Assembly: GCA_020632215.1 (NCBI GenBank)
Contig: JACKFZ010000001.1
Span: forward strand, 83,444 to 120,683
From: Candidatus Nomurabacteria bacterium
Lineage (GTDB): Bacteria; Patescibacteriota; Minisyncoccia; Phycocordibacterales; JAACPR01
Direction: 5' to 3'
DNA length: 37,240 bases
Part shown: positions 6,476 to 37,240 of the stretch, piece by piece
Numbering within the stretch: the first letter of the stretch is position 1
How the letters are laid out: each line of letters opens with the position of its first letter
Position numbers and translations under genes: made by a program
Notes under the pieces: model-generated
The model's database searches: none
What the model saw: the letters and a program-made list of their open reading frames with translations, nothing else
Told to the model about the DNA's origin: nothing

Positions 6476-6745
6476 GGGCAGGCTTAATGAAACTCGCAAG
6501 ATCTAAGCGATACAAAAATACATATCGCTTCGCTATATGTATTTTTTATCGTGTGAGTCTACCGGGAATCGGTCACAAGTCACTAAGCTTTTTGTCTCGC
6601 TCGTAGACTCGCTCACAAAAATCTAAGTGCTCGCGACCCCGCCTCGAAAGCTTCGCTTTCTCCGGCCTTCGATTATCTCCTCAGGAGATTCACTAAGAAC
6701 AAAAATAGCCCCGGATAAACCGGGACTATTTTGGTCCTGTGACCC
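6476..6745. repeat. Copy 1 of a 263-270 bp direct repeat of the tRNA-Glu downstream region
   Basis: Colinear with and highly similar to 7695-7957. Contains a degenerate tRNA 3'-end copy (6553-6571) and several hairpins. Confidence 0.9.
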
Positions 6746-6834
6746 AAGTGGGACAGAATTGGAACCAATTGGTTAGAGAACTACAAGTATGGCAGGTTTT
6801 TGGAAAGGAAGTATTTGAGAACAAGACCGCTTAA
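6739..6834 (+). pseudogene. Possible C-terminal tail of a lost site-specific recombinase at an att junction
   Basis: VTQVGQNWNQLVRELQVWQVFGKEVFENKTA* begins exactly at a degenerate tRNA-end copy (gtgaccc). The recombinase-tail identity is inferred from resemblance only. Confidence 0.4.
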
Positions 6835-6845
6835 TGGTAATAAAA

Positions 6846-7562
6846 CTAACCATGAGCCATATTAGTAAATTTCTCTATCTCTCCGTAGTTTTTTGAACCA
6901 TCAAGGTTTTGGACTCCTGTCTCGACATCAACACCATAAAATCCTCCAACCTCCATTGCAGCTTCTAAATTTATAGTTTTCAATCCTCCTGCCAGCCATA
7001 CAGGTAGATTACTTTCTTCTAATATTTTTTTACTAATAGACCAATCATGAGTTTGCCCTGTCCCTCCTGTCATATCTCCAACTTTTGAATCTAGAAGAAT
7101 TGCACTCAGAACGCCTGTCTCTTCATATCTTTTTGCCTCTTGTATAGCATCATGACCCGTAACATGGATAACTTTTACAATCTCAAGGTCTGGAAGTGCT
7201 TCTTTGATTTTCAATACTTCTTCAGGTGAAATATCACCTGTTAACTGAATGTGCGATGGCTGTACTCTGTTTGCAAAGTTAATATTAGTTTCTGCATCCT
7301 CTGCATTAGTAAGCATAAAAGTCTTTATATCACCATGTGACTTTTTTAATGTCTCAACTATTTCTACTGCTTGTTCCTCAGGAATATTATTTTTTGCTAG
7401 CTCTTTATCAAAGCCGACTAATACACCTATAGCATCTGGATGCAGATTACATATTTTATTTGCTTCCTCTACTGTTCTTACACCACAAATCTTAACTTTT
7501 AATTTAGGAGTCGATTCTATACTCTCAGTCACTTCCGTCTTTGGGTTACTTTGTTCTGGCAT
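6846..7562 (-). CDS. trpF: Phosphoribosylanthranilate isomerase (PRAI)
   Basis: KVKICG, HIQLTG, ILLDS...GGTGQTHDW, VWLAGGL and GVDVETGV motifs. Confidence 0.88.
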   Translation of the reverse strand: MPEQSNPKTEVTESIESTPKLKVKICGVRTVEEANKICNLHPDAIGVLVGFDKELAKNNIPEEQAVEIVETLKKSHGDIKTFMLTNAEDAETNINFANRVQPSHIQLTGDISPEEVLKIKEALPDLEIVKVIHVTGHDAIQEAKRYEETGVLSAILLDSKVGDMTGGTGQTHDWSISKKILEESNLPVWLAGGLKTINLEAAMEVGGFYGVDVETGVQNLDGSKNYGEIEKFTNMAHG

Positions 7563-7694: not shown

Positions 7695-7957
7695 GGGCAG
7701 GCTTAATGAAACTCGGCGAGATCTAAGCGATATAAAATTACATATCGCTTCGCTATATGTATTTTTATCGTGTGACCCTACCGGGAATCGGTCACAAGTC
7801 ACTAAGCTTTTTACTTCGCTCCACTCGTAAAAATCTAAGTGCTCGCGACCCCGCCTCGAAAGCTTCGCTTTCTCCGGCCTTCGATTATCTCCTCAGGAGA
7901 TTCACTGAGAACAAAAATAGCCCCGGATAAACCGGGACTATTTTGGTCCTGTGACCC
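7695..7957. repeat. Copy 2 of the tRNA-downstream direct repeat, including the att-like copy at 7772-7790
   Basis: See 6476-6745. Positions 7772-7790 (gtgaccctaccgggaatcg) are identical to 7951-7969. Confidence 0.9.
7914..7944 (-). terminator. Intrinsic terminator downstream of tRNA-Glu
   Basis: Minus strand aaaatagtcccgg-tttat-ccggggctatttt (13-bp stem with one G:U) ending in Ts; a second copy lies in repeat 1. Confidence 0.7.
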
Positions 7958-20829: not shown

Positions 20830-21055
20830 ATGTCGCACAATATATCTTTTCCGACATAATACCGTACATTTAACTATAAATTATATATTTATATAATGTT
20901 GATCATATAACTAACTAAGCATGTATCTTGGATACTTGTCGGAAAAGATGGCGCGATTGTGCGACTAAAAATACACCTCATTTCTATTAAAAATACACCT
21001 CATTTCTATATTTATTACTATTTCGTAATTTTGTCGCACAATCGCTTTTGCGACA
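20830..21055. other. Three related palindromic sites (TGTCG...CGAC) plus a 22-bp tandem duplication
   Basis: Sites at 20830-20857, 20937-20966 and 21032-21055; tandem taaaaatacacctcatttctat at 20966-21009. Confidence 0.7.
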
Positions 21056-23058: not shown

Positions 23059-24343
23059 TATCGATTCTTTTTATGGTTATTTCTTTTCCAAAAATATAGC
23101 TAAGCTCAAATGGGTCTGGAGATTTATCTTTTCCAGAAAGTGCGTATCTCAAAGGCCATAGGACATTTCCTTTTCCTTTTTCTGACGCATAATCCCAAAT
23201 GCTATTTTTGATATTTTCTGCCGAAGAAAAGTCTGCATTAGAAAGTAATTCCCTAGCTTTGTTTAAATGTTCTTTAGCTTCTCCAAGTCCAGAATCTTTC
23301 CAAACAATTGAATTGACATTGTAATCTGGGTCATTAGAGTAATAGTCTAATTCTCCAGACTCTTTCATTATATCAATATCTGAATAAACAGAAATCCGTT
23401 CTTTTATAGTTGGTATAAGTCTTTCTGCTATATCTTCATTGATGCCATCAAGCTTATCCATAATAGCATTTGCTACTTCCCCTTCATTTCTTGTAGATAA
23501 ATAATGTTTGTTATACCAATTTAATTTATCCATATTAAAAACTGCACCACCTAATTGAATCTTGCTCAAATCAAAAGCTTTTATTAGCTCATCCATAGAA
23601 AAAATTTCTTGATCTGTTCCAGGATTCCAACCTAGAAATGCTAATTGATTGATTATTGCTTCTTTGAAATATCCTTCTTCTTTCCATTCCAAAACTGATT
23701 TTGCCCCATGTCTTTTTGAAAGTTTTTTCTTATCATTTCCCAATACCATTGGCATATGAGTATATAAAGGTCTTGGAGCTCCAATGGCTTCCTGAATTAA
23801 TATTTGTCTCGGAGTGTTTGCGATACCATCTTCACCTCTAATAATATGAGTGACTCCCATTTCAAAATCATCAACAACAACAGTCAAATGATAAAGCGGA
23901 TCATCTATACTTCTTGCGATAATAAAATCTTCTAGATCTGTTGTGTCAATTGTAATGTCTCCCCTATTCGTATCATTAAAAGCAATTTTTGTATTTGGAT
24001 TTTTGAAACGAATGACTTCACTTCTCTTCCCTTCTGTTTCTTTTGAGATGTATGCAGTTCCATCTGCAATCATTTTTTCTAAATATTTTTTGTAAATCTC
24101 AGTTCTTTCTGATTGCCTGTATATTTCATCAAATTTTAAACCCAACCAGTCAACACTTTCTTTGATGTTATCTTCAAATTCTTTTCTGCTCCTTGCCTTA
24201 TCAGTATCTTCAAATCTCAAGATAATTTTTCCATTGTTTTGTTTTGCATAGAGATAATTAAAAAGCATCATTCTAGCTGTTCCTAGATTCAAATTCCCGG
24301 TTGGGGATGGAGCTACTCTTGTTATAACTTGGTTGTTATTCAT
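23030..24343 (-). CDS. gltX: Glutamate--tRNA ligase (compact)
   Basis: TRVAPSPTG, LRFEDTD, HIIRGED and KLSKRHG motifs, with an anticodon-binding C-terminus. Confidence 0.9.
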   Translation of the reverse strand: MNNNQVITRVAPSPTGNLNLGTARMMLFNYLYAKQNNGKIILRFEDTDKARSRKEFEDNIKESVDWLGLKFDEIYRQSERTEIYKKYLEKMIADGTAYISKETEGKRSEVIRFKNPNTKIAFNDTNRGDITIDTTDLEDFIIARSIDDPLYHLTVVVDDFEMGVTHIIRGEDGIANTPRQILIQEAIGAPRPLYTHMPMVLGNDKKKLSKRHGAKSVLEWKEEGYFKEAIINQLAFLGWNPGTDQEIFSMDELIKAFDLSKIQLGGAVFNMDKLNWYNKHYLSTRNEGEVANAIMDKLDGINEDIAERLIPTIKERISVYSDIDIMKESGELDYYSNDPDYNVNSIVWKDSGLGEAKEHLNKARELLSNADFSSAENIKNSIWDYASEKGKGNVLWPLRYALSGKDKSPDPFELSYIFGKEITIKRIDNAISKIEKE

Positions 24344-27745: not shown

Positions 27746-29350
27746 TTAAACCCTCACTTTCTGATATTTCTTCCCTTTCATAAAAACATTCATAAAATAC
27801 TTTCTTAGATTTTCATCACAAATGTAAACATAAGTTCCTTTGATTCCTCGTGTTAATAAGGTTTTATAAATATTAATAATATATTGTTCTAATTCTTCTG
27901 GAGAAGCAGATCTTTTTCCATTAAAGTCCATGTATTTATTTTTATCTATAATAAATTTAGTATTTTCAAAATCGTATGAAATCTCTGGACCAATGATTAC
28001 ACCAGTGTAGTTTAAATCGTATCCTTGTATTGTATGAATACAACCAATTTCATTTATAGAATTTTCTGATTCTACCCAACCTTCGGTTTTACTATTCCAA
28101 ACTAGTTCTAAACCATTAATTTTTATATCAAACTTTTCTTTTTTCTTTTTTGTGTGCCAAGGCCACGCGTATCCTGCGACAACACGAGATAACCCATGAA
28201 TTTTATTATGAGTCTTTATATCAGTAATCATCTTTCCAATGTCATCATATATTTGGAAATCATAATCTTTAAAAGTGACTGGATTGAGATTTACATTTTC
28301 AAAAATACCTTCTATAAAAGAAATATATTCTTCACCACCTTCTACTCTCATTTGACTTGTTAATTCTCGTTTTGTTGCTTTTAAATTACTGAAAATTTCT
28401 CTGTTAATGTCAGCGGGTCTTATGGTTTGGTTTTGATCATATAGAAAGATATGATTTTTGGACGAATTCAATATCCAGTCTAACTGTGTGGATTCTTTAG
28501 GCAATTTTAGTTTTTTGTTTGTATCATCATAACTTTTAAAATTTGCTAGATTTAATCTTTGTTGCAGACGATGAGATTCATCAACTATTAATAAATCGTA
28601 TTTCTTTTTTGTTACATCATTTGGTCCAAGTATCATTGATGATTTTAATCCTTTAACTTTTGAAAAAACTTTTTTTATTGTTTTTCTCAATGATGTCATT
28701 GGAACAACTAAACCAATTTCTAGATTTTCGGTAGCTTCTTTTTCTTTTAAATATTTCAACAAATAAATAGCAAGAACCGTTTTTCCTGTTCCTGGTTTTC
28801 CATTTATTAAATAAGTTATATCTTGGCCATCTTTTAATTTTTTATAAATTTCCTTTACAAGTAGTAATTGATCATCACTAAGAGTTTTGTATGGAGAATA
28901 TTTGAATAAATCACTATTTTTTAATTCTTGTAGATCATTTGTAACTAATTTATGATTTCTTAATTTTTGCCAGATTATCTCTTCAAATTTAGTTTTATAT
29001 TTTTCTCGATCAAAGTAGTTATGATTTTTGAGACCACCATTTCCATTTTGTAAGGTTATAGATTCTTCGGCAGAAATATATTGTATGAGCCAAGATTCAG
29101 TGTCTAATGTTGCAGACTTATTATATTCTTGATCGCTTATAATATGGATGTTTTTTAACTTTCTTCTCTCTGGTTTTTCGAAATGTTGCTTACTTCTGTA
29201 ATAAGCATTTATTGTTTCTCCAATATACATTTCTTTACATCCTTTTATGTCTTCTATGATATAGACAACTGGCCAATTTTTTCCAAAATGGTAATTTTTA
29301 ATTTTTTCAAAACCCTCTTGTTTAAAAGGAAAAGTTATTATTTGTGTCAT
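27746..29350 (-). CDS. GIY-YIG nuclease fused to DUF2075 (Schlafen group 3-like) helicase
   Basis: VVYII...MYIGET...RSKQH (GIY-YIG), GKPGTGKT, IVDESHR, SQMRV, IHTIQGYDL and YKTLLTRG motifs. Confidence 0.88.
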   Translation of the reverse strand: MTQIITFPFKQEGFEKIKNYHFGKNWPVVYIIEDIKGCKEMYIGETINAYYRSKQHFEKPERRKLKNIHIISDQEYNKSATLDTESWLIQYISAEESITLQNGNGGLKNHNYFDREKYKTKFEEIIWQKLRNHKLVTNDLQELKNSDLFKYSPYKTLSDDQLLLVKEIYKKLKDGQDITYLINGKPGTGKTVLAIYLLKYLKEKEATENLEIGLVVPMTSLRKTIKKVFSKVKGLKSSMILGPNDVTKKKYDLLIVDESHRLQQRLNLANFKSYDDTNKKLKLPKESTQLDWILNSSKNHIFLYDQNQTIRPADINREIFSNLKATKRELTSQMRVEGGEEYISFIEGIFENVNLNPVTFKDYDFQIYDDIGKMITDIKTHNKIHGLSRVVAGYAWPWHTKKKKEKFDIKINGLELVWNSKTEGWVESENSINEIGCIHTIQGYDLNYTGVIIGPEISYDFENTKFIIDKNKYMDFNGKRSASPEELEQYIINIYKTLLTRGIKGTYVYICDENLRKYFMNVFMKGKKYQKVRV

Positions 29351-29351
29351 A

Positions 29352-29699
29352 TTAAAGTTTGTTATATTTGGTATGTTTTCCTTTGGATTTTTTTACTGGG
29401 TACTTTTTACTATTTATTTTTATTTTTCTTTCAAGAGATTTCGCAATATCTATTTTAAGATCATTAGACATTAACAGAATCCAGTATAAAACATCAGCTA
29501 ATTCTTCTGAGATTTCAGTTTTTTGTTTTTTTATATATTCTTCAATTTCTTTTTCATTTTTCCATTGAAAATGTTCTAGCACCTCTGCTGCTTCAAGAGA
29601 TAAAGAAATAGCACAATCTTTTGGGTTATGAAATTGTTTCCAATTTCTTTTATCTCGAAAGTCTGTTATTTGTTTTGTTAGTTTAGAAATCTCACCCAT
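29352..29699 (-). CDS. MazG-like nucleotide pyrophosphohydrolase
   Basis: RNWKQFHNPKD, EAAEVLE and EELADV motifs. Confidence 0.9.
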   Translation of the reverse strand: MGEISKLTKQITDFRDKRNWKQFHNPKDCAISLSLEAAEVLEHFQWKNEKEIEEYIKKQKTEISEELADVLYWILLMSNDLKIDIAKSLERKIKINSKKYPVKKSKGKHTKYNKL

Positions 29700-29708
29700 A
29701 TATAACGC

Positions 29709-29742
29709 TATTTAACCACTCCCAATCCCAAAATTCAACCTC
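29709..29742. repeat. 34-bp direct repeat, copy 1
   Basis: tatttaaccactcccaatcccaaaattcaacctc, identical at 30535-30568. Confidence 0.95.
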
Positions 29743-29861
29743 TCAAAAGTCTATATTCAGGGATGTTGATAACCTTGATTTTAGTCTAGAAAAATGATAT
29801 ACATATTGCATACCTATCTCGAGGTTAATTCGGGAAAACGATCCACAAAGACCTGACTTGC

Positions 29862-30524
29862 TCAGGCCTTTGTTTTTATTTTAGTAATGTGTTTCTTTAT
29901 TCTTTGTGCATTAATAATTAAATCTGCTGTTTTTCTCAAATAAGATGTTATGTTTCCTGCTTTTATTAGAATAATTCTTTTACCAGCCTTTTTCAAAAAA
30001 TTATTTAAATAAGTGAAATCTGAATCACCAGAAAAAAGACAAAAAGTATCATAGTGTTTTAACATTTTTATAGCATCAACAGACATTTCGACATCAAAAT
30101 TACTCTTTCTAATTTCTATATATTTTTTACCTTTTTTGTCGGTATGTAGTTCATCAAACAGACTCAGATCTTCCGATTCAGGGTAGTGTTTTATTTTTTG
30201 CAGTTTTTTAGTTATAAAGTTTCTTTTACCAAATATTTTGGCATTTACGTAAGTATATCTTTTTGATCCTAAATTATTTGGATCATATCCATAATAATTT
30301 CTAACTTTACTAGAAAATATATCAGCAAATCGTTTCAATCCCTCAAGATTAATTACTATTTTTTGATTATCATCTAATTGGTTATTGTCATAATCTTGTC
30401 GATCTTCTTCAAACCAATTGTTTACATTCCCAAAGTCTATAAATGAAAATATGTTGGCAAATTCTTCTGTTATTCCAAGATCATCACGGATATATTGTTT
30501 TTTAAATTCTTCCAGAGTAGACAT
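29862..30524 (-). CDS. NYN domain (LabA/DUF88, PIN-like) protein
   Basis: FIDFGNV, KSNFDVEM and LFSGDSDF acidic motifs. Confidence 0.88.
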   Translation of the reverse strand: MSTLEEFKKQYIRDDLGITEEFANIFSFIDFGNVNNWFEEDRQDYDNNQLDDNQKIVINLEGLKRFADIFSSKVRNYYGYDPNNLGSKRYTYVNAKIFGKRNFITKKLQKIKHYPESEDLSLFDELHTDKKGKKYIEIRKSNFDVEMSVDAIKMLKHYDTFCLFSGDSDFTYLNNFLKKAGKRIILIKAGNITSYLRKTADLIINAQRIKKHITKIKTKA

Positions 30525-30534
30525 GATTATCTGT

Positions 30535-30568
30535 TATTTAACCACTCCCAATCCCAAAATTCAACCTC
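30535..30568. repeat. 34-bp direct repeat, copy 2
   Basis: Identical to 29709-29742; abuts and overlaps the stop codon of the M48 gene. Confidence 0.95.
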
Positions 30569-31115
30569 ACACCAACCCCTTCAATTCCCTCTCCCACTTC
30601 TTATAATCTGGACAAAAGGTGGCTACTAGAGCCCAGTAACTTTTGCTGTGGTTTAGAAACTTCAAGTGGCACAGTTCGTGAATGATGACATAATCTCGGA
30701 TTTCGGGCTTAGTGAACATTAGCTTGTAGTTGAAGTTCAAATAACCTTGTGATGAACAACTTCCCCATCTACCTCTTTGATTTCTAATGCTAATTCTTTT
30801 GTATTTTAAACCAACTTTTTGACTGAGCTTCTCAACTCTCTCAGTAATCACTTTTCTAGCTTCTTCTTTATGTTTTTGATAATGCCTTTTAGAAAAAATA
30901 GTTAGATCTTTGTTTTCAATTTTATTTATCTTTTTATCTATTTTGGCTAAATGTCTTTTGATCCATTCTATATGTCTATTTACAAAAGAATGAATAGATT
31001 CTTCTTGCACTGTATAAGGAGCTACAGCTGTGACAAGGCCATTAGGAGAAATAGTGACACTCATTCTTTTAGCTCTGTAGCTTCTACGAACTTTGTAAGG
31101 GATGTTGTGGGGCAT
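30567..31115 (-). CDS. M48/YgjP (DUF45) family metallopeptidase
   Basis: RWGSCS and YVIIHELCH (HExxH) motifs. Confidence 0.9.
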   Translation of the reverse strand: MPHNIPYKVRRSYRAKRMSVTISPNGLVTAVAPYTVQEESIHSFVNRHIEWIKRHLAKIDKKINKIENKDLTIFSKRHYQKHKEEARKVITERVEKLSQKVGLKYKRISIRNQRGRWGSCSSQGYLNFNYKLMFTKPEIRDYVIIHELCHLKFLNHSKSYWALVATFCPDYKKWERELKGLV

Positions 31116-31565
31116 CTATTTAAACAATCCTACTATTTTTTCTAAAGGAATAGAAACAAGAAGTGTTCCAATGGCTACAAGTGTAAGTCCAATTCCTGTT
31201 TGTAAAGTAATTCCTTCTGCTAAAACAAAAACAGCAAGTATGGCTGTGAAAATTATAGAAAGTTTATCAATCACTGTCACAGCTACAGTTGGACCGACAG
31301 ATAAAGCTTGGTAGAAAAAGATCCAAGACAGCGCTCCTCCAACACCTGACAAAACTACAAAGACCCATTGCTTTTGAGAAAGAGATTGAATAGCGGTTAG
31401 AGAAAGTTTTCCAAAAGAAAGAGCTGCTACAGAAACAATAATAGCCATGACTATTCCTCTAATAGCCGTTAGAAGATTTGAATCAACTCCTTTCAATCCT
31501 ATCTTGGCAAAAATGGTTCCGACACTGGCCATTAATGCTCCAAGTAATGCGTAGATGATGTACAT
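31116..31565 (-). CDS. EamA family (DMT) membrane protein
   Basis: IFAKIGLKGVDSNLLTAIR, SWIFFYQALSVG and VIDKLSI motifs; hydrophobic. Confidence 0.85.
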   Translation of the reverse strand: MYIIYALLGALMASVGTIFAKIGLKGVDSNLLTAIRGIVMAIIVSVAALSFGKLSLTAIQSLSQKQWVFVVLSGVGGALSWIFFYQALSVGPTVAVTVIDKLSIIFTAILAVFVLAEGITLQTGIGLTLVAIGTLLVSIPLEKIVGLFK

Positions 31566-36181: not shown

Positions 36182-37240
36182 TTTTTTTATCAACTTTTAA
36201 GCCCAATTCTTTCAATTGTTTATCTGATAGTTCTGTCGGAGCCTGCATCACTGCCACTTGCCCACCTCTAGTTGTTGGGAATGCTTGAACTTCTCGCAAA
36301 GCTTCTTCGTTCATAACAGTCATTAGATTTCTTTCCACACCCAAGGCAATGCCTCCGTGTGAGGGCGCACCAAACTTGAATGCCTCTAACATATGACCAA
36401 TTTTTTCTTTTATTTCTCCATCAGAGTTACCCATTATCTTGTATGTTGCTTCTAGCAGTTCTGGTTTATGAGATCGAATACTTCCTCCACCAACTTCAAA
36501 TCCATTACATACAAGATCATACTGTTGAGCCACAATAGACTCAATATTTTCTCCTTTCAAAAGATTTTCTTCGTGTTCTTGTTTAACAGCAGAAAATGGA
36601 TTGTGTGTGAAAGTCCAGTTACCTTCTTTATCTTTTTCAAAGAAAGGAAAATCTACTACCCAAGCATAAGCCAGGACTCCTTCTGTTTTTTCTTCTTCTG
36701 TTCTGAGGTCAAATTTATCTTCACCAAACTTTTCTATAGCTTCTGCATAGGTGAATCTTGGAAAAGGTTTTTCTTTTATCTTTGCTCCAATCTTTTCTGC
36801 TGAATGAATAATCATTTCCTCAACCATTTTCAAAACATCTTCTTGTGTTACAAAAGACATTTCAATATCAATTTGAGTATGCTCGAATCCTCTATCAGCT
36901 CTTAGATCTTCGTCTCTCATAGCTCTAGCCATCTGAAAGTATCTATCAAAACCTCCAACCATCAGTAATTGTTTGTACTGTTGTGGTGATTGAGGTAGAG
37001 CATAAAATTTTCCTTGGTGAATTCTGGATGGCACCACAAAGTCTCTGGATCCTTCTGGTGTTGCTTCTGTTAGAAGTGGAGTTTCTATTTCTGTAAATTT
37101 ATTTTTTAGAAGAAATTCTCTATTAGCATTAACCCATTCAGAACGTTTCTTGATATTTTCCTGCATTCTTTTTGTTCGCAAATCTAAATATCGATATTTC
37201 AATCTCACTTCCTCATCAACATTTGTTGTATCTTCTGTTA
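36174..37240 (-). CDS. aspS: Aspartate--tRNA ligase (5' part beyond the window end)
   Basis: RLKYRYLDLR, LPQSPQQYKQLLM, RDEDLRADR, EVGGGSIR and HGGIALG motifs; the frame stays open to the window edge. Confidence 0.93.
   Translation of the reverse strand, partial: TEDTTNVDEEVRLKYRYLDLRTKRMQENIKKRSEWVNANREFLLKNKFTEIETPLLTEATPEGSRDFVVPSRIHQGKFYALPQSPQQYKQLLMVGGFDRYFQMARAMRDEDLRADRGFEHTQIDIEMSFVTQEDVLKMVEEMIIHSAEKIGAKIKEKPFPRFTYAEAIEKFGEDKFDLRTEEEKTEGVLAYAWVVDFPFFEKDKEGNWTFTHNPFSAVKQEHEENLLKGENIESIVAQQYDLVCNGFEVGGGSIRSHKPELLEATYKIMGNSDGEIKEKIGHMLEAFKFGAPSHGGIALGVERNLMTVMNEEALREVQAFPTTRGGQVAVMQAPTELSDKQLKELGLKVDKKND

Follow-up and report, generated by a model that had tools for sequence, protein, structure and literature searches.

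How did a nuclease gene come to lie between two identical copies of a 34-nt sequence, each ending a few bases ahead of a start codon? The question is raised by a 37,240-nt stretch of DNA, referred to here as the window, which spans positions 83444-120683 of contig C1 (JACKFZ010000001.1) in a 719-kb assembly of 15 contigs (GCA_020632215.1, 94% complete) from Candidatus Nomurabacteria, an ultra-small bacterium of the Patescibacteria or candidate phyla radiation (CPR) type. On the minus strand of the window, the gene for an NYN-domain nuclease follows ygjP, which encodes a YgjP-like metallopeptidase, and precedes mazG, which encodes a MazG-like pyrophosphatase. One copy of the repeat, called R below, stands in front of NYN and the other in front of mazG. 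We consider R to be a probable target-site duplication that arose when a unit made of the NYN gene and a convergent small-RNA gene was inserted upstream of mazG. The module appears widespread in Patescibacteria, where it would most likely act as an RNA-controlled toxin-antitoxin or abortive-infection system.

R is the minus-strand 34-mer GAGGTTGAATTTTGGGATTGGGAGTGGTTAAATA, of which the window has exactly two copies, 826 nt apart. The chance expectation for a match to R was zero in 100 dinucleotide-preserving shuffles, even with up to three mismatches allowed. Copy 1 starts on the last two bases of the ygjP stop codon and stops 10 nt short of the NYN ATG (30524), and 9 nt separate the end of copy 2 from the mazG ATG (29699). 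The coordinates confirm the initial annotation on these points, in which the ygjP product was called M48. R is composed of local sequence, namely the ygjP stop and the spacer between ygjP and mazG. Deletion of one unit would give the ygjP TGA, a 41-nt spacer and the mazG ATG, which agrees with the earlier statement that mazG would then lie directly behind ygjP. A third copy of R was found neither by pattern search nor by blastn (word size 7) in the 719-kb assembly, and the lack of extra copies in the latter search ruled out that R belongs to the multicopy RNA mini-gene family of this genome. R was not found in the genomes of 60 relatives with a DNA query covering both copies, and the exact 34-mer had no match in a species-representative genome collection. 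A 22-mer of R gave a single match in the JGI metagenomes, within a 762-aa open reading frame (ORF) encoding ...LILGLGVV..., which was judged to be due to chance; an 18-mer gave a chance match within coding sequence in viral contigs. No secondary structure was detected in R (fold z = +0.7 and +0.9), and no Rfam family matched it.

It had been proposed that R doubles as a translation-start region that each gene inherits. The same 34 nt do precede both the NYN and the mazG start, but the translational part of the proposal fared poorly. The sole motif in R that resembles a Shine-Dalgarno (SD) sequence is GGGAG, about 20 nt from either ATG, and SD-like tetramers show a faint enrichment at the usual spacing among 373 long ORFs of the genome. 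Because of this spacing of ~20 nt and the weak genome-wide use of SD signals, R is unlikely to serve as an SD element. As a separate observation, both copies of R read in the ygjP frame give G*ILGLGVVK followed by a stop codon (TAA or TAG), and the tail of R (GGATTG...TTAAATAG) is similar to the 3' end of eamA, the gene upstream of ygjP (IVGLFK*; 30535-30568 compared with 31116-31140). This weak evidence hints that R could be what remains of the 3' end of a membrane-protein gene formerly next to mazG.

The 826-bp unit stood up as a discrete inserted cassette, as had been suggested, and NYN is its only ORF. The GC content of the inserted segment is 0.28, compared with 0.35 in the 1.5 kb on the ygjP side, 0.27 in the 1.5 kb on the mazG side and 0.25-0.30 in the island generally. 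The NYN protein matches PF01936 with 55.7 bits against a cut-off of 24.2 and is a distant match to the LabA-like structure 2qip. Residues D30, D144, E146, D150, D167 and D169 are invariant among 30 homologues and are, judged from the alignment, the acidic residues expected of an NYN/PIN-like active site. The NYN domains characterised so far are RNases. The family is abundant in Patescibacteria, with 363 matches of which the best is just 65% identical; it occurs once per genome with no sign of intragenomic spread, and the viral contigs held only 3 weak loci. In one homologue (L025:2995-3657), which is 62% identical over residues 4-220, codon 8 is followed by an in-frame stop under translation table 11; this may point to a pseudogene or to an alternative genetic code.

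The edges of the unit can be placed by comparison of the homologous loci. Nothing is conserved upstream of NYN; the conserved unit starts at about the ATG, often with a host stop codon 3-7 nt ahead. The NYN gene is thus predicted to be promoterless, and since there is no conservation upstream of it, the module would consist of a promoterless nuclease gene and a convergent small-RNA gene. The other end of the unit falls just past the conserved -35 box of the antisense promoter. Terminal inverted repeats were not found, the two ends (ACAGATAATC... and ...GACTTTTGA) having no inverted similarity.

The 119 nt between the NYN stop codon and copy 2 of R are filled by this conserved antisense small-RNA gene, which was absent from the initial annotation. 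The RNA element was defined by aligning the DNA downstream of 27 NYN homologues. In these it appears as ~110 nt of conserved non-coding sequence, located either across the NYN stop codon or just after it. On the strand opposite NYN the order is a -35 box TTGAC(T), a 17-nt variable spacer, a -10 box TATACT/TATATT and a transcript of ~66-70 nt, in which ACCUGCCCGAGGUUAAUUCGGGA, AACUAUCCACAAAG, the terminator hairpin and UUUGUUUUUU follow one another. Both promoter hexamers are kept across the 27 loci while the spacer sequence varies. In the window, the predicted RNA has a 5' hairpin, a single-stranded stretch with GATCCACAAAG, a terminator hairpin (29845-29873) and then a T-run, and this copy adopts the two-hairpin fold with z = -3.0.

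The predicted fold is supported by covariation. The two helices are 95.4% paired and show compensatory changes in 11 of 17 pairs, which none of 500 shuffles reached, and the paired cells dropped to 59% or less once the partners were slid by one to three columns. The T-run is found on the antisense strand only, and the cleanly aligned G:U pairs favor the antisense strand by 6 to 1. No Rfam family matched the 3' element. With a covariance model of the RNA (R1), 7 of the 301 genomes searched in the order gave a match at E <= 1e-10, each with a single copy, and only one of these copies does not adjoin an NYN gene. The RNA sequence and its two hairpins are conserved across loci whose NYN proteins are only 45-65% identical. 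In computational terms, a small-RNA gene that runs towards NYN, with a predicted promoter and terminator of its own, overlaps the NYN 3' end, which is the arrangement expected of a type I toxin-antitoxin. One match to the model (L126, G136:C28:1680-1779, E 4.5e-12) has no NYN gene beside it by tblastn and may be an orphan RNA gene or the neighbor of a very divergent or decayed NYN gene.

Just upstream of the antisense -35 box there is a 9-mer that resembles a DnaA box (Table 1), and the perfect TTATCCACA occupies the equivalent position in many homologous loci. A related DnaA-box-like 9-mer, CTATCCACA, lies inside the RNA (29839-29847), with the same positions in L024-L053. The two 9-mers, in inverted orientation, enclose the antisense promoter together with the 5' part of the RNA.

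Are similar repeats found around NYN genes elsewhere? For 28 full-length loci from other genomes, the 500 nt on the upstream side of NYN were compared with the 500 nt on its downstream side, and the longest exact direct repeat shared by the two was determined. Besides the 34 nt of the window, locus L035 has a repeat of 65 nt (spacing 872) and L026 one of 21 nt, or 27 nt with one mismatch (spacing 800); the maximum among 930 mismatched upstream/downstream pairs, used as a control, was 14 nt. The L035 and L026 repeats are sharply bounded, and neither is related to R or to the other. Their positions are equivalent across the loci, with one copy 3-35 nt ahead of the NYN ATG and the other 91-121 nt past the stop, and the 3' edge of the unit is fairly constant at 33-37 nt past the antisense -35 box. 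As in the window, the repeated sequence comes from a neighboring gene. The L035 repeat includes the first 11 codons (MRKIITIIGPT) and the upstream region of a divergent miaA-like gene. In the L026 repeat, the downstream membrane-protein gene is represented by its start codon and first codons, and the upstream copy forms a 12-codon mini-ORF that overlaps the NYN ATG. For L035, the empty site is present in a relative (G101), where the gap between the miaA-like and peroxiredoxin-like genes is ~120 nt compared with 959 nt in L035 with its NYN unit, and synteny extends on both sides. It is because other NYN loci carry unrelated local repeats, and because the L035 insertion has an empty site, that R is best read as a target duplication.

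Other loci gave less clear or negative results. The repeats of L023 (14 nt) and L054 (15 nt) are ambiguous. An imperfect flanking repeat of ~200 nt at L039 was not counted as a target duplication, being ambiguous and resembling two diverged copies of the 3' end of a structured-RNA gene. A search for the empty site of L026 found nothing, and four further close homologues (L155-L158) have the RNA element with no flanking duplication. For P0083 the context was the same at all 8 places shown (24 contigs), which gives no evidence of recent movement. Several units lie close to RNA genes. At L036 and L039 the NYN unit comes just after the end of a structured-RNA gene (GGTTCAATCCCGGTCAACGGCTCC plus terminator), which is tmRNA- or tRNA-like and was called by neither ARAGORN nor Rfam, and at L039 (2740-2960, 3765-3970) a second, diverged copy of this RNA-gene end, ~200 nt long, is found on the other side of NYN. 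At L042 the NYN gene is located ~50 nt after the 3' end of a tRNA.

The contexts of the NYN-RNA unit are diverse. The unit is found between hsdM and hsdS of type I restriction-modification operons (L155, L028-L032 context), beside SLFN/AlbA proteins, between recQ and a methyltransferase gene, between miaA and a peroxiredoxin gene, next to secF and next to a reverse transcriptase. The association with defence loci is therefore frequent and not obligatory, as sites between housekeeping genes are used too. At L012 (G003:C41, 137-1405), on a 3-kb contig, the NYN homologue (51% identity) is directly downstream of a co-oriented reverse-transcriptase ORF (RVT_1, E 3e-21).

Based on these data, we propose the following course of events. 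The ancestral state would have been ygjP with its TGA, the 41-nt spacer and the mazG ATG. A foreign unit of 792 bp (29743-30534) would have entered 9 nt upstream of the mazG start, and the 34 nt to the left of the insertion would have been duplicated, so that one copy now stands before NYN and the other before mazG. The duplication could have arisen through staggered breaks with fill-in, template switching, or homology-facilitated illegitimate recombination during natural transformation. Through the duplication NYN has the same 34-nt upstream context as mazG and the context of mazG stays intact, which may have helped the insertion to be tolerated. NYN would be transcribed by read-through from ygjP. 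The small RNA would be made on the plus strand from its own sigma-70-type promoter, end at a Rho-independent terminator that overlaps the NYN stop, and pair with the 3' end of the NYN mRNA. Because its sequence and hairpins are conserved far beyond the need of cis pairing, the RNA is proposed perhaps also to bind the NYN nuclease. The RNA would restrain NYN as a nuclease toxin until a trigger, such as phage infection or loss of the locus. Seen in this way, the NYN-RNA module is most likely an RNA-controlled toxin-antitoxin or abortive-infection unit.

The state of this locus in natural populations bears directly on the proposal. Proteins identical to those of the window are carried by three Logan runs (SRR26387399, SRR12358676 and SRR12358675). 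The mazG contigs of all three, with identical MazG and DUF2075 proteins, start at base 5 of R (29738); we take k to be 31 in the Logan assembly graph, and such a graph breaks where R has more than one continuation, which would account for this start. On this evidence the repeat is not confined to the present assembly. The eamA contig of SRR12358675 has 100% identity to the window over 4.4 kb and ends at the "TA" of the eamA stop (31117), just before ygjP. Logan contigs that are 99.85-100% identical to the window end or diverge at 31117, 30566, 29738, 27742 and 26787, and in SRR26387399 the DUF3800/PDC-M04A-like gene is replaced by ~1.7 kb with a 179-aa ORF, DUF3761 and two small ORFs. These contig variants identify the gap between mraY and ftsW as an apparently strain-variable island and hint that the natural population is polymorphic between eamA and mazG. 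A single-nucleotide polymorphism at base 4 of R, a 61-nt repeat variant and a presence/absence allele of ygjP were considered as candidate causes of the breaks. No alternative haplotype was found on the small contigs of the metagenome-assembled genome (MAG).

Several observations weigh against the reading of R as the target duplication of a toxin-antitoxin unit. Clear flanking duplications were seen at only 3 of ~37 NYN loci examined; the loci that lack one may be old insertions or may have another origin. The exact NYN protein is on record only from NCBI and from none of the Logan assemblies in which identical YgjP, MazG, DUF2075 and EamA proteins occur, so the contiguity of ygjP-R-NYN-R-mazG comes from the MAG alone. 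In SRR26387399 the ygjP contig ends at base 3 of R (30566), whereas base 30 would be predicted for a simple 34-nt repeat, and this implies an additional variant. Neither an empty allele (ygjP-R-mazG) nor another filling of the window locus was found in the relatives, which are distant. The conservation of the RNA exceeds what simple cis-antisense pairing needs. Finally, we know of no established mechanism that makes duplications of 27-65 nt in the absence of a transposase.

Is the duplicating step encoded by the NYN unit or is it a property of the host? The whole genome was scanned for perfect direct repeats of at least 20 nt that lie 0.2-4 kb apart, with tandem repeats inside genes and the multicopy RNA family set aside. 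Similar scars flank single genes for an OMP decarboxylase (pyrF) and for two orphan proteins, and a gene for phosphoribosylanthranilate isomerase (PRAI/TrpF) within the window has flanking repeats of ~280 nt (Table 1). The right copy at TrpF extends 15 nt into the 3' end of a tRNA-Glu gene (7951-8023), and the TrpF unit appears to be another single gene inserted with a long duplication at its flanks. An empty site for the pyrF unit was not found in the relatives. In several cases a copy of the repeat is placed close upstream of the starts of both the newcomer and the downstream gene; the distances are 10/9 nt at NYN-mazG, 27/30 nt for pyrF and 12/4 nt for the 307-aa orphan. Because the scars surround genes other than NYN, the duplicating step would be a property of DNA integration in this lineage and not an NYN-encoded activity, which suggests a general duplicative route of insertion in place of NYN-driven mobility. 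Extended to CPR genomes as a whole, the proposal would be that single foreign genes are gained by a recombinase-free duplicative route that leaves sharp target duplications of 20-300 bp and copies upstream signals to newcomer and downstream gene alike, with the NYN-RNA module, an undescribed RNA-controlled toxin or defence unit, as its most frequent passenger and pyrF and trpF bearing the same kind of scar. We offer this wider statement as a tentative one.

The alternative that accommodates these data best is a by-product of natural transformation, either homology-facilitated illegitimate recombination or the integration, by one Campbell-type crossover, of a circularised fragment bearing the cassette and homology to the region upstream of mazG, after which selection kept the expression signals of both genes. 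Such a route would fit with duplications whose lengths (24-280 nt) and 5' edges vary, with the same type of scar around several unrelated genes, with the lack of dedicated enzymes and with the placement of repeat copies shortly upstream of newcomer and downstream starts in several cases. However, the cassette would need to lie next to the same local sequence in the donor beforehand, and no such allele was seen. Junction microhomology is not obvious beyond 2/3 bases to the left of R, and the weakness of SD signals in the genome leaves the selective value of a copied R unproven. We regard this route as possible, though with clearly less confidence than the duplication of R at insertion.

A further possibility is that the NYN-RNA unit is itself an autonomous mobile element, whose PIN-like NYN protein, possibly RNA-guided, makes staggered nicks in the target in the manner of a homing enzyme or a transposase and so leaves long duplications of variable length. 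The duplications recur specifically around NYN units of unrelated genomes, the 3' edge of the unit is fairly constant relative to the -35 box, and a genome-wide search for mobility enzymes found no RVT_1, DDE_Tnp_1 (PF01609; IS4-type) or Cas1 that could act in its place. On the other hand, the OMP decarboxylase gene, the TrpF gene and two orphans have equally sharp duplications of 24-280 nt, the 5' edge varies between 3 and 35 nt before the ATG, the unit lacks terminal inverted repeats and is held in a single copy per genome, and an RNase activity would be the expectation from characterised NYN domains. Self-mobilization by NYN therefore appears unlikely to us.

The initial annotation favored an integron-like stacking of cassettes at a fixed site, each new gene inheriting the same upstream element. 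In a full version of this model, R would be a reusable site at which a trans-acting site-specific recombinase stacks promoterless genes. Some features resemble this scheme: the cassette has a single gene, no promoter and a structured 3' element, the last bases of R are GTTAAAT, which by direct reading fits the integron core GTTRRRY, and the variable mraY-ftsW gap has Logan breaks at the EamA stop, at R and past DUF2075. The absence of an integrase and of attC, already noted at that time, was borne out, as the mraY-ftsW island has no integrase ORF and the 3' element is not of the attC type. It consists of two separate covarying hairpins and an opposite-strand promoter, not of an imperfect palindrome with paired core sites (RYYYAAC ... 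GTTRRRY). The stacking itself was not supported: R has only two copies in the genome and was not found in the relatives or public collections searched, it has no fold, the repeats at other NYN cassettes are unrelated and derived from their loci, and none of the neighboring genes (ygjP, eamA, mazG) is bounded by R as a cassette. The genome encodes one tyrosine recombinase (PF00589), and this is on a separate 3.2-kb contig (C3). We consider such stacking very unlikely.

The least probable explanation is a chimeric MAG contig in which an NYN fragment of another strain or molecule was threaded through a short repeat; the exact NYN protein is indeed missing from the three Logan runs in which the flanking genes have 100% identity, breaks in Logan contigs fall at the EamA stop, R3 and R5, and the repeat length of 34 is near the common assembler k of 33, but threading requires R at both ends of the NYN fragment in real reads and hence both junctions must exist, the same architecture with other repeats is present in independent assemblies by other groups and assemblers (L035, L026), and the mazG contigs of the three runs start at R5, as expected for an R with two continuations.

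The features of the locus and of the comparable units in the same assembly are collected in Table 1. The minus-strand order is a dacA-like S11 peptidase gene, mraY, two orphan ORFs, eamA, ygjP, R copy 1, NYN, R copy 2, the mazG-like gene and a GIY-YIG + SLFN-g3/DUF2075 helicase gene, beyond which follow a PDC-M04A-like gene on the plus strand and then ftsW. Profile matches support the assignments of YgjP-like (PF01863, E 8e-48), NYN (PF01936, E 1e-14) and MazG-like (PF12643, E 3e-17) proteins. The mazG-DUF2075 pair is present with no NYN in four relatives, G015 (in a syntenic dacA-mraY context), G004, G057 and G038, and NYN homologues occupy other places in the relatives G026 and G003. In no relative examined does ygjP adjoin mazG.

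Table 1. Positions of the features discussed in the text. Numbers refer to the window unless a contig of the assembly (C1, C9, C10) is named.
Feature	Position	Strand	Description
R copy 1	30535-30568	-	perfect 34 nt; 37 nt with 1 mismatch as 30535-30571
R copy 2	29709-29742	-	perfect 34 nt; extended form 29709-29745
Unique inserted segment	29743-30534	-	792 nt; 10-nt leader, NYN ORF and 119-nt 3' region with antisense RNA gene
NYN-domain nuclease gene	29862-30524	-	220 aa; Patescibacteria-wide family of ~220 aa
Predicted antisense promoter	29775-29803	+	-35 TTGATT (29775-29780), 17-nt spacer, TG-extended -10 TATACA (TG-n-TATACA; 29798-29803)
Predicted antisense RNA	29810-29882	+	~70 nt; convergent with NYN, overlaps its stop codon (29862-29864) and last codons
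DnaA-box-like 9-mer TGTTGATAA	29764-29772	+	reverse complement of TTATCAACA; one mismatch from the DnaA-box consensus TTATCCACA; just upstream of antisense -35
eamA	31116-31565	-	
ygjP-like (DUF45) metallopeptidase gene	30567-31115	-	upstream neighbor; stop codon overlaps start of R copy 1
MazG-like pyrophosphatase gene	29352-29699	-	first gene of conserved pair of MazG and GIY-YIG/SLFN-g3 (DUF2075) helicase
GIY-YIG/SLFN-g3 (DUF2075) helicase gene	27746-29350	-	second gene of the mazG pair
OMP-decarboxylase gene (PF00215; pyrF), repeats	C10:22258-22289 / 23187-23218		32-nt repeat; unit GC 0.49 compared with 0.35 in the genome; directly upstream of next gene
307-aa orphan, repeats	C9:19970-19995 / 20950-20975		26-nt repeat, purine-rich AAGAGGTGGTGAGGG
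157-aa orphan, repeats	C1:36232-36255 / 36954-36977		24-nt repeat; unit GC 0.49
PRAI/TrpF gene (PF00697, E 1.6e-18)	6846-7562	-	repeats of ~280 nt at 6476-6753 / 7695-7965, 92-100% identical

A literature search for an NYN-antisense RNA module, or for such scars in CPR, found no description of either. If the proposal is correct, a widespread and unannotated small-RNA gene and a nuclease-RNA module would be added to the sparse catalogue of regulatory RNAs, toxins and defence systems of Patescibacteria. It would also mean that genes can be gained with long target duplications and no recognisable transposase, integrase, reverse transcriptase or Cas1, which bears on how defence islands vary in genomes of ~0.7 Mb that have hardly any mobile-element machinery. 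Recombination between the perfect 34-bp repeats should now and then remove the unit precisely; such reversible loss leads one to expect the locus to be polymorphic in nature. What the window newly contributes is an apparently recent NYN insertion, the hints of population polymorphism and the scars at non-NYN genes of the same genome.

The inserted unit can be compared with several known systems, and as a family it fits none of those considered. The closest parallel for its gene arrangement is found in type I toxin-antitoxins with a convergent antisense RNA overlapping the 3' end, such as txpA/RatA and bsrG/SR4 of B. subtilis, and SymE/SymR and RalR/RalA are type I cases with nuclease toxins. 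Like these, the NYN unit pairs a protein gene with a convergent small RNA that has its own promoter and intrinsic terminator and overlaps the 3' end of the mRNA, and it is a compact module of patchy distribution, often in defence islands. Unlike them, its protein is a 220-aa NYN/PIN-like nuclease and not a small membrane peptide, and its RNA is conserved across proteins of 45-65% identity, which suggests a role beyond cis pairing, possibly protein binding as in type III systems. PrrC of EcoprrI is a gene embedded in a restriction-modification operon, and NYN-RNA units likewise occur between hsdM and hsdS, with the window unit directly before the defence-like pair of MazG and GIY-YIG/DUF2075; unlike PrrC, the NYN unit is also placed between housekeeping genes (recQ/methyltransferase, miaA/prx, secF).

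The comparison with mobile systems is equally divided. Members of the IS1634 family (IS1634, IS1549) make unusually long target duplications of variable length. The NYN unit would share with them direct duplications of the local target, from tens to hundreds of bp and varying between events, but it has no DDE transposase (PF01609 is absent from the genome), no terminal inverted repeats and one copy per genome, and its cargo is a nuclease and an RNA gene. Integron cassettes resemble it in being promoterless single ORFs with a structured 3' element, located downstream of resident expression signals in a variable region. In contrast to recombination of attC with attI by IntI, the NYN unit has neither IntI nor attI, its 3' element is a small-RNA gene, and its 34-nt repeat is target sequence that does not fold and differs from locus to locus. 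Islets of tyrosine recombinases are bounded by attL and attR and bring an identical core to every insertion site, whereas the repeats that flank NYN differ completely between loci, are made of neighboring-gene sequence and have no shared core. For minimal mobile elements of Neisseria and for free-standing homing-endonuclease genes of T4-like phages, movement depends on homologous recombination or double-strand-break repair of the flanks and makes no target duplication. Both are, like the NYN unit, single-gene units, often nucleases, that sit in the gaps separating conserved genes, vary in presence from strain to strain and have no recombinase; the sharp duplications of 27-65 nt set the NYN unit apart from them.

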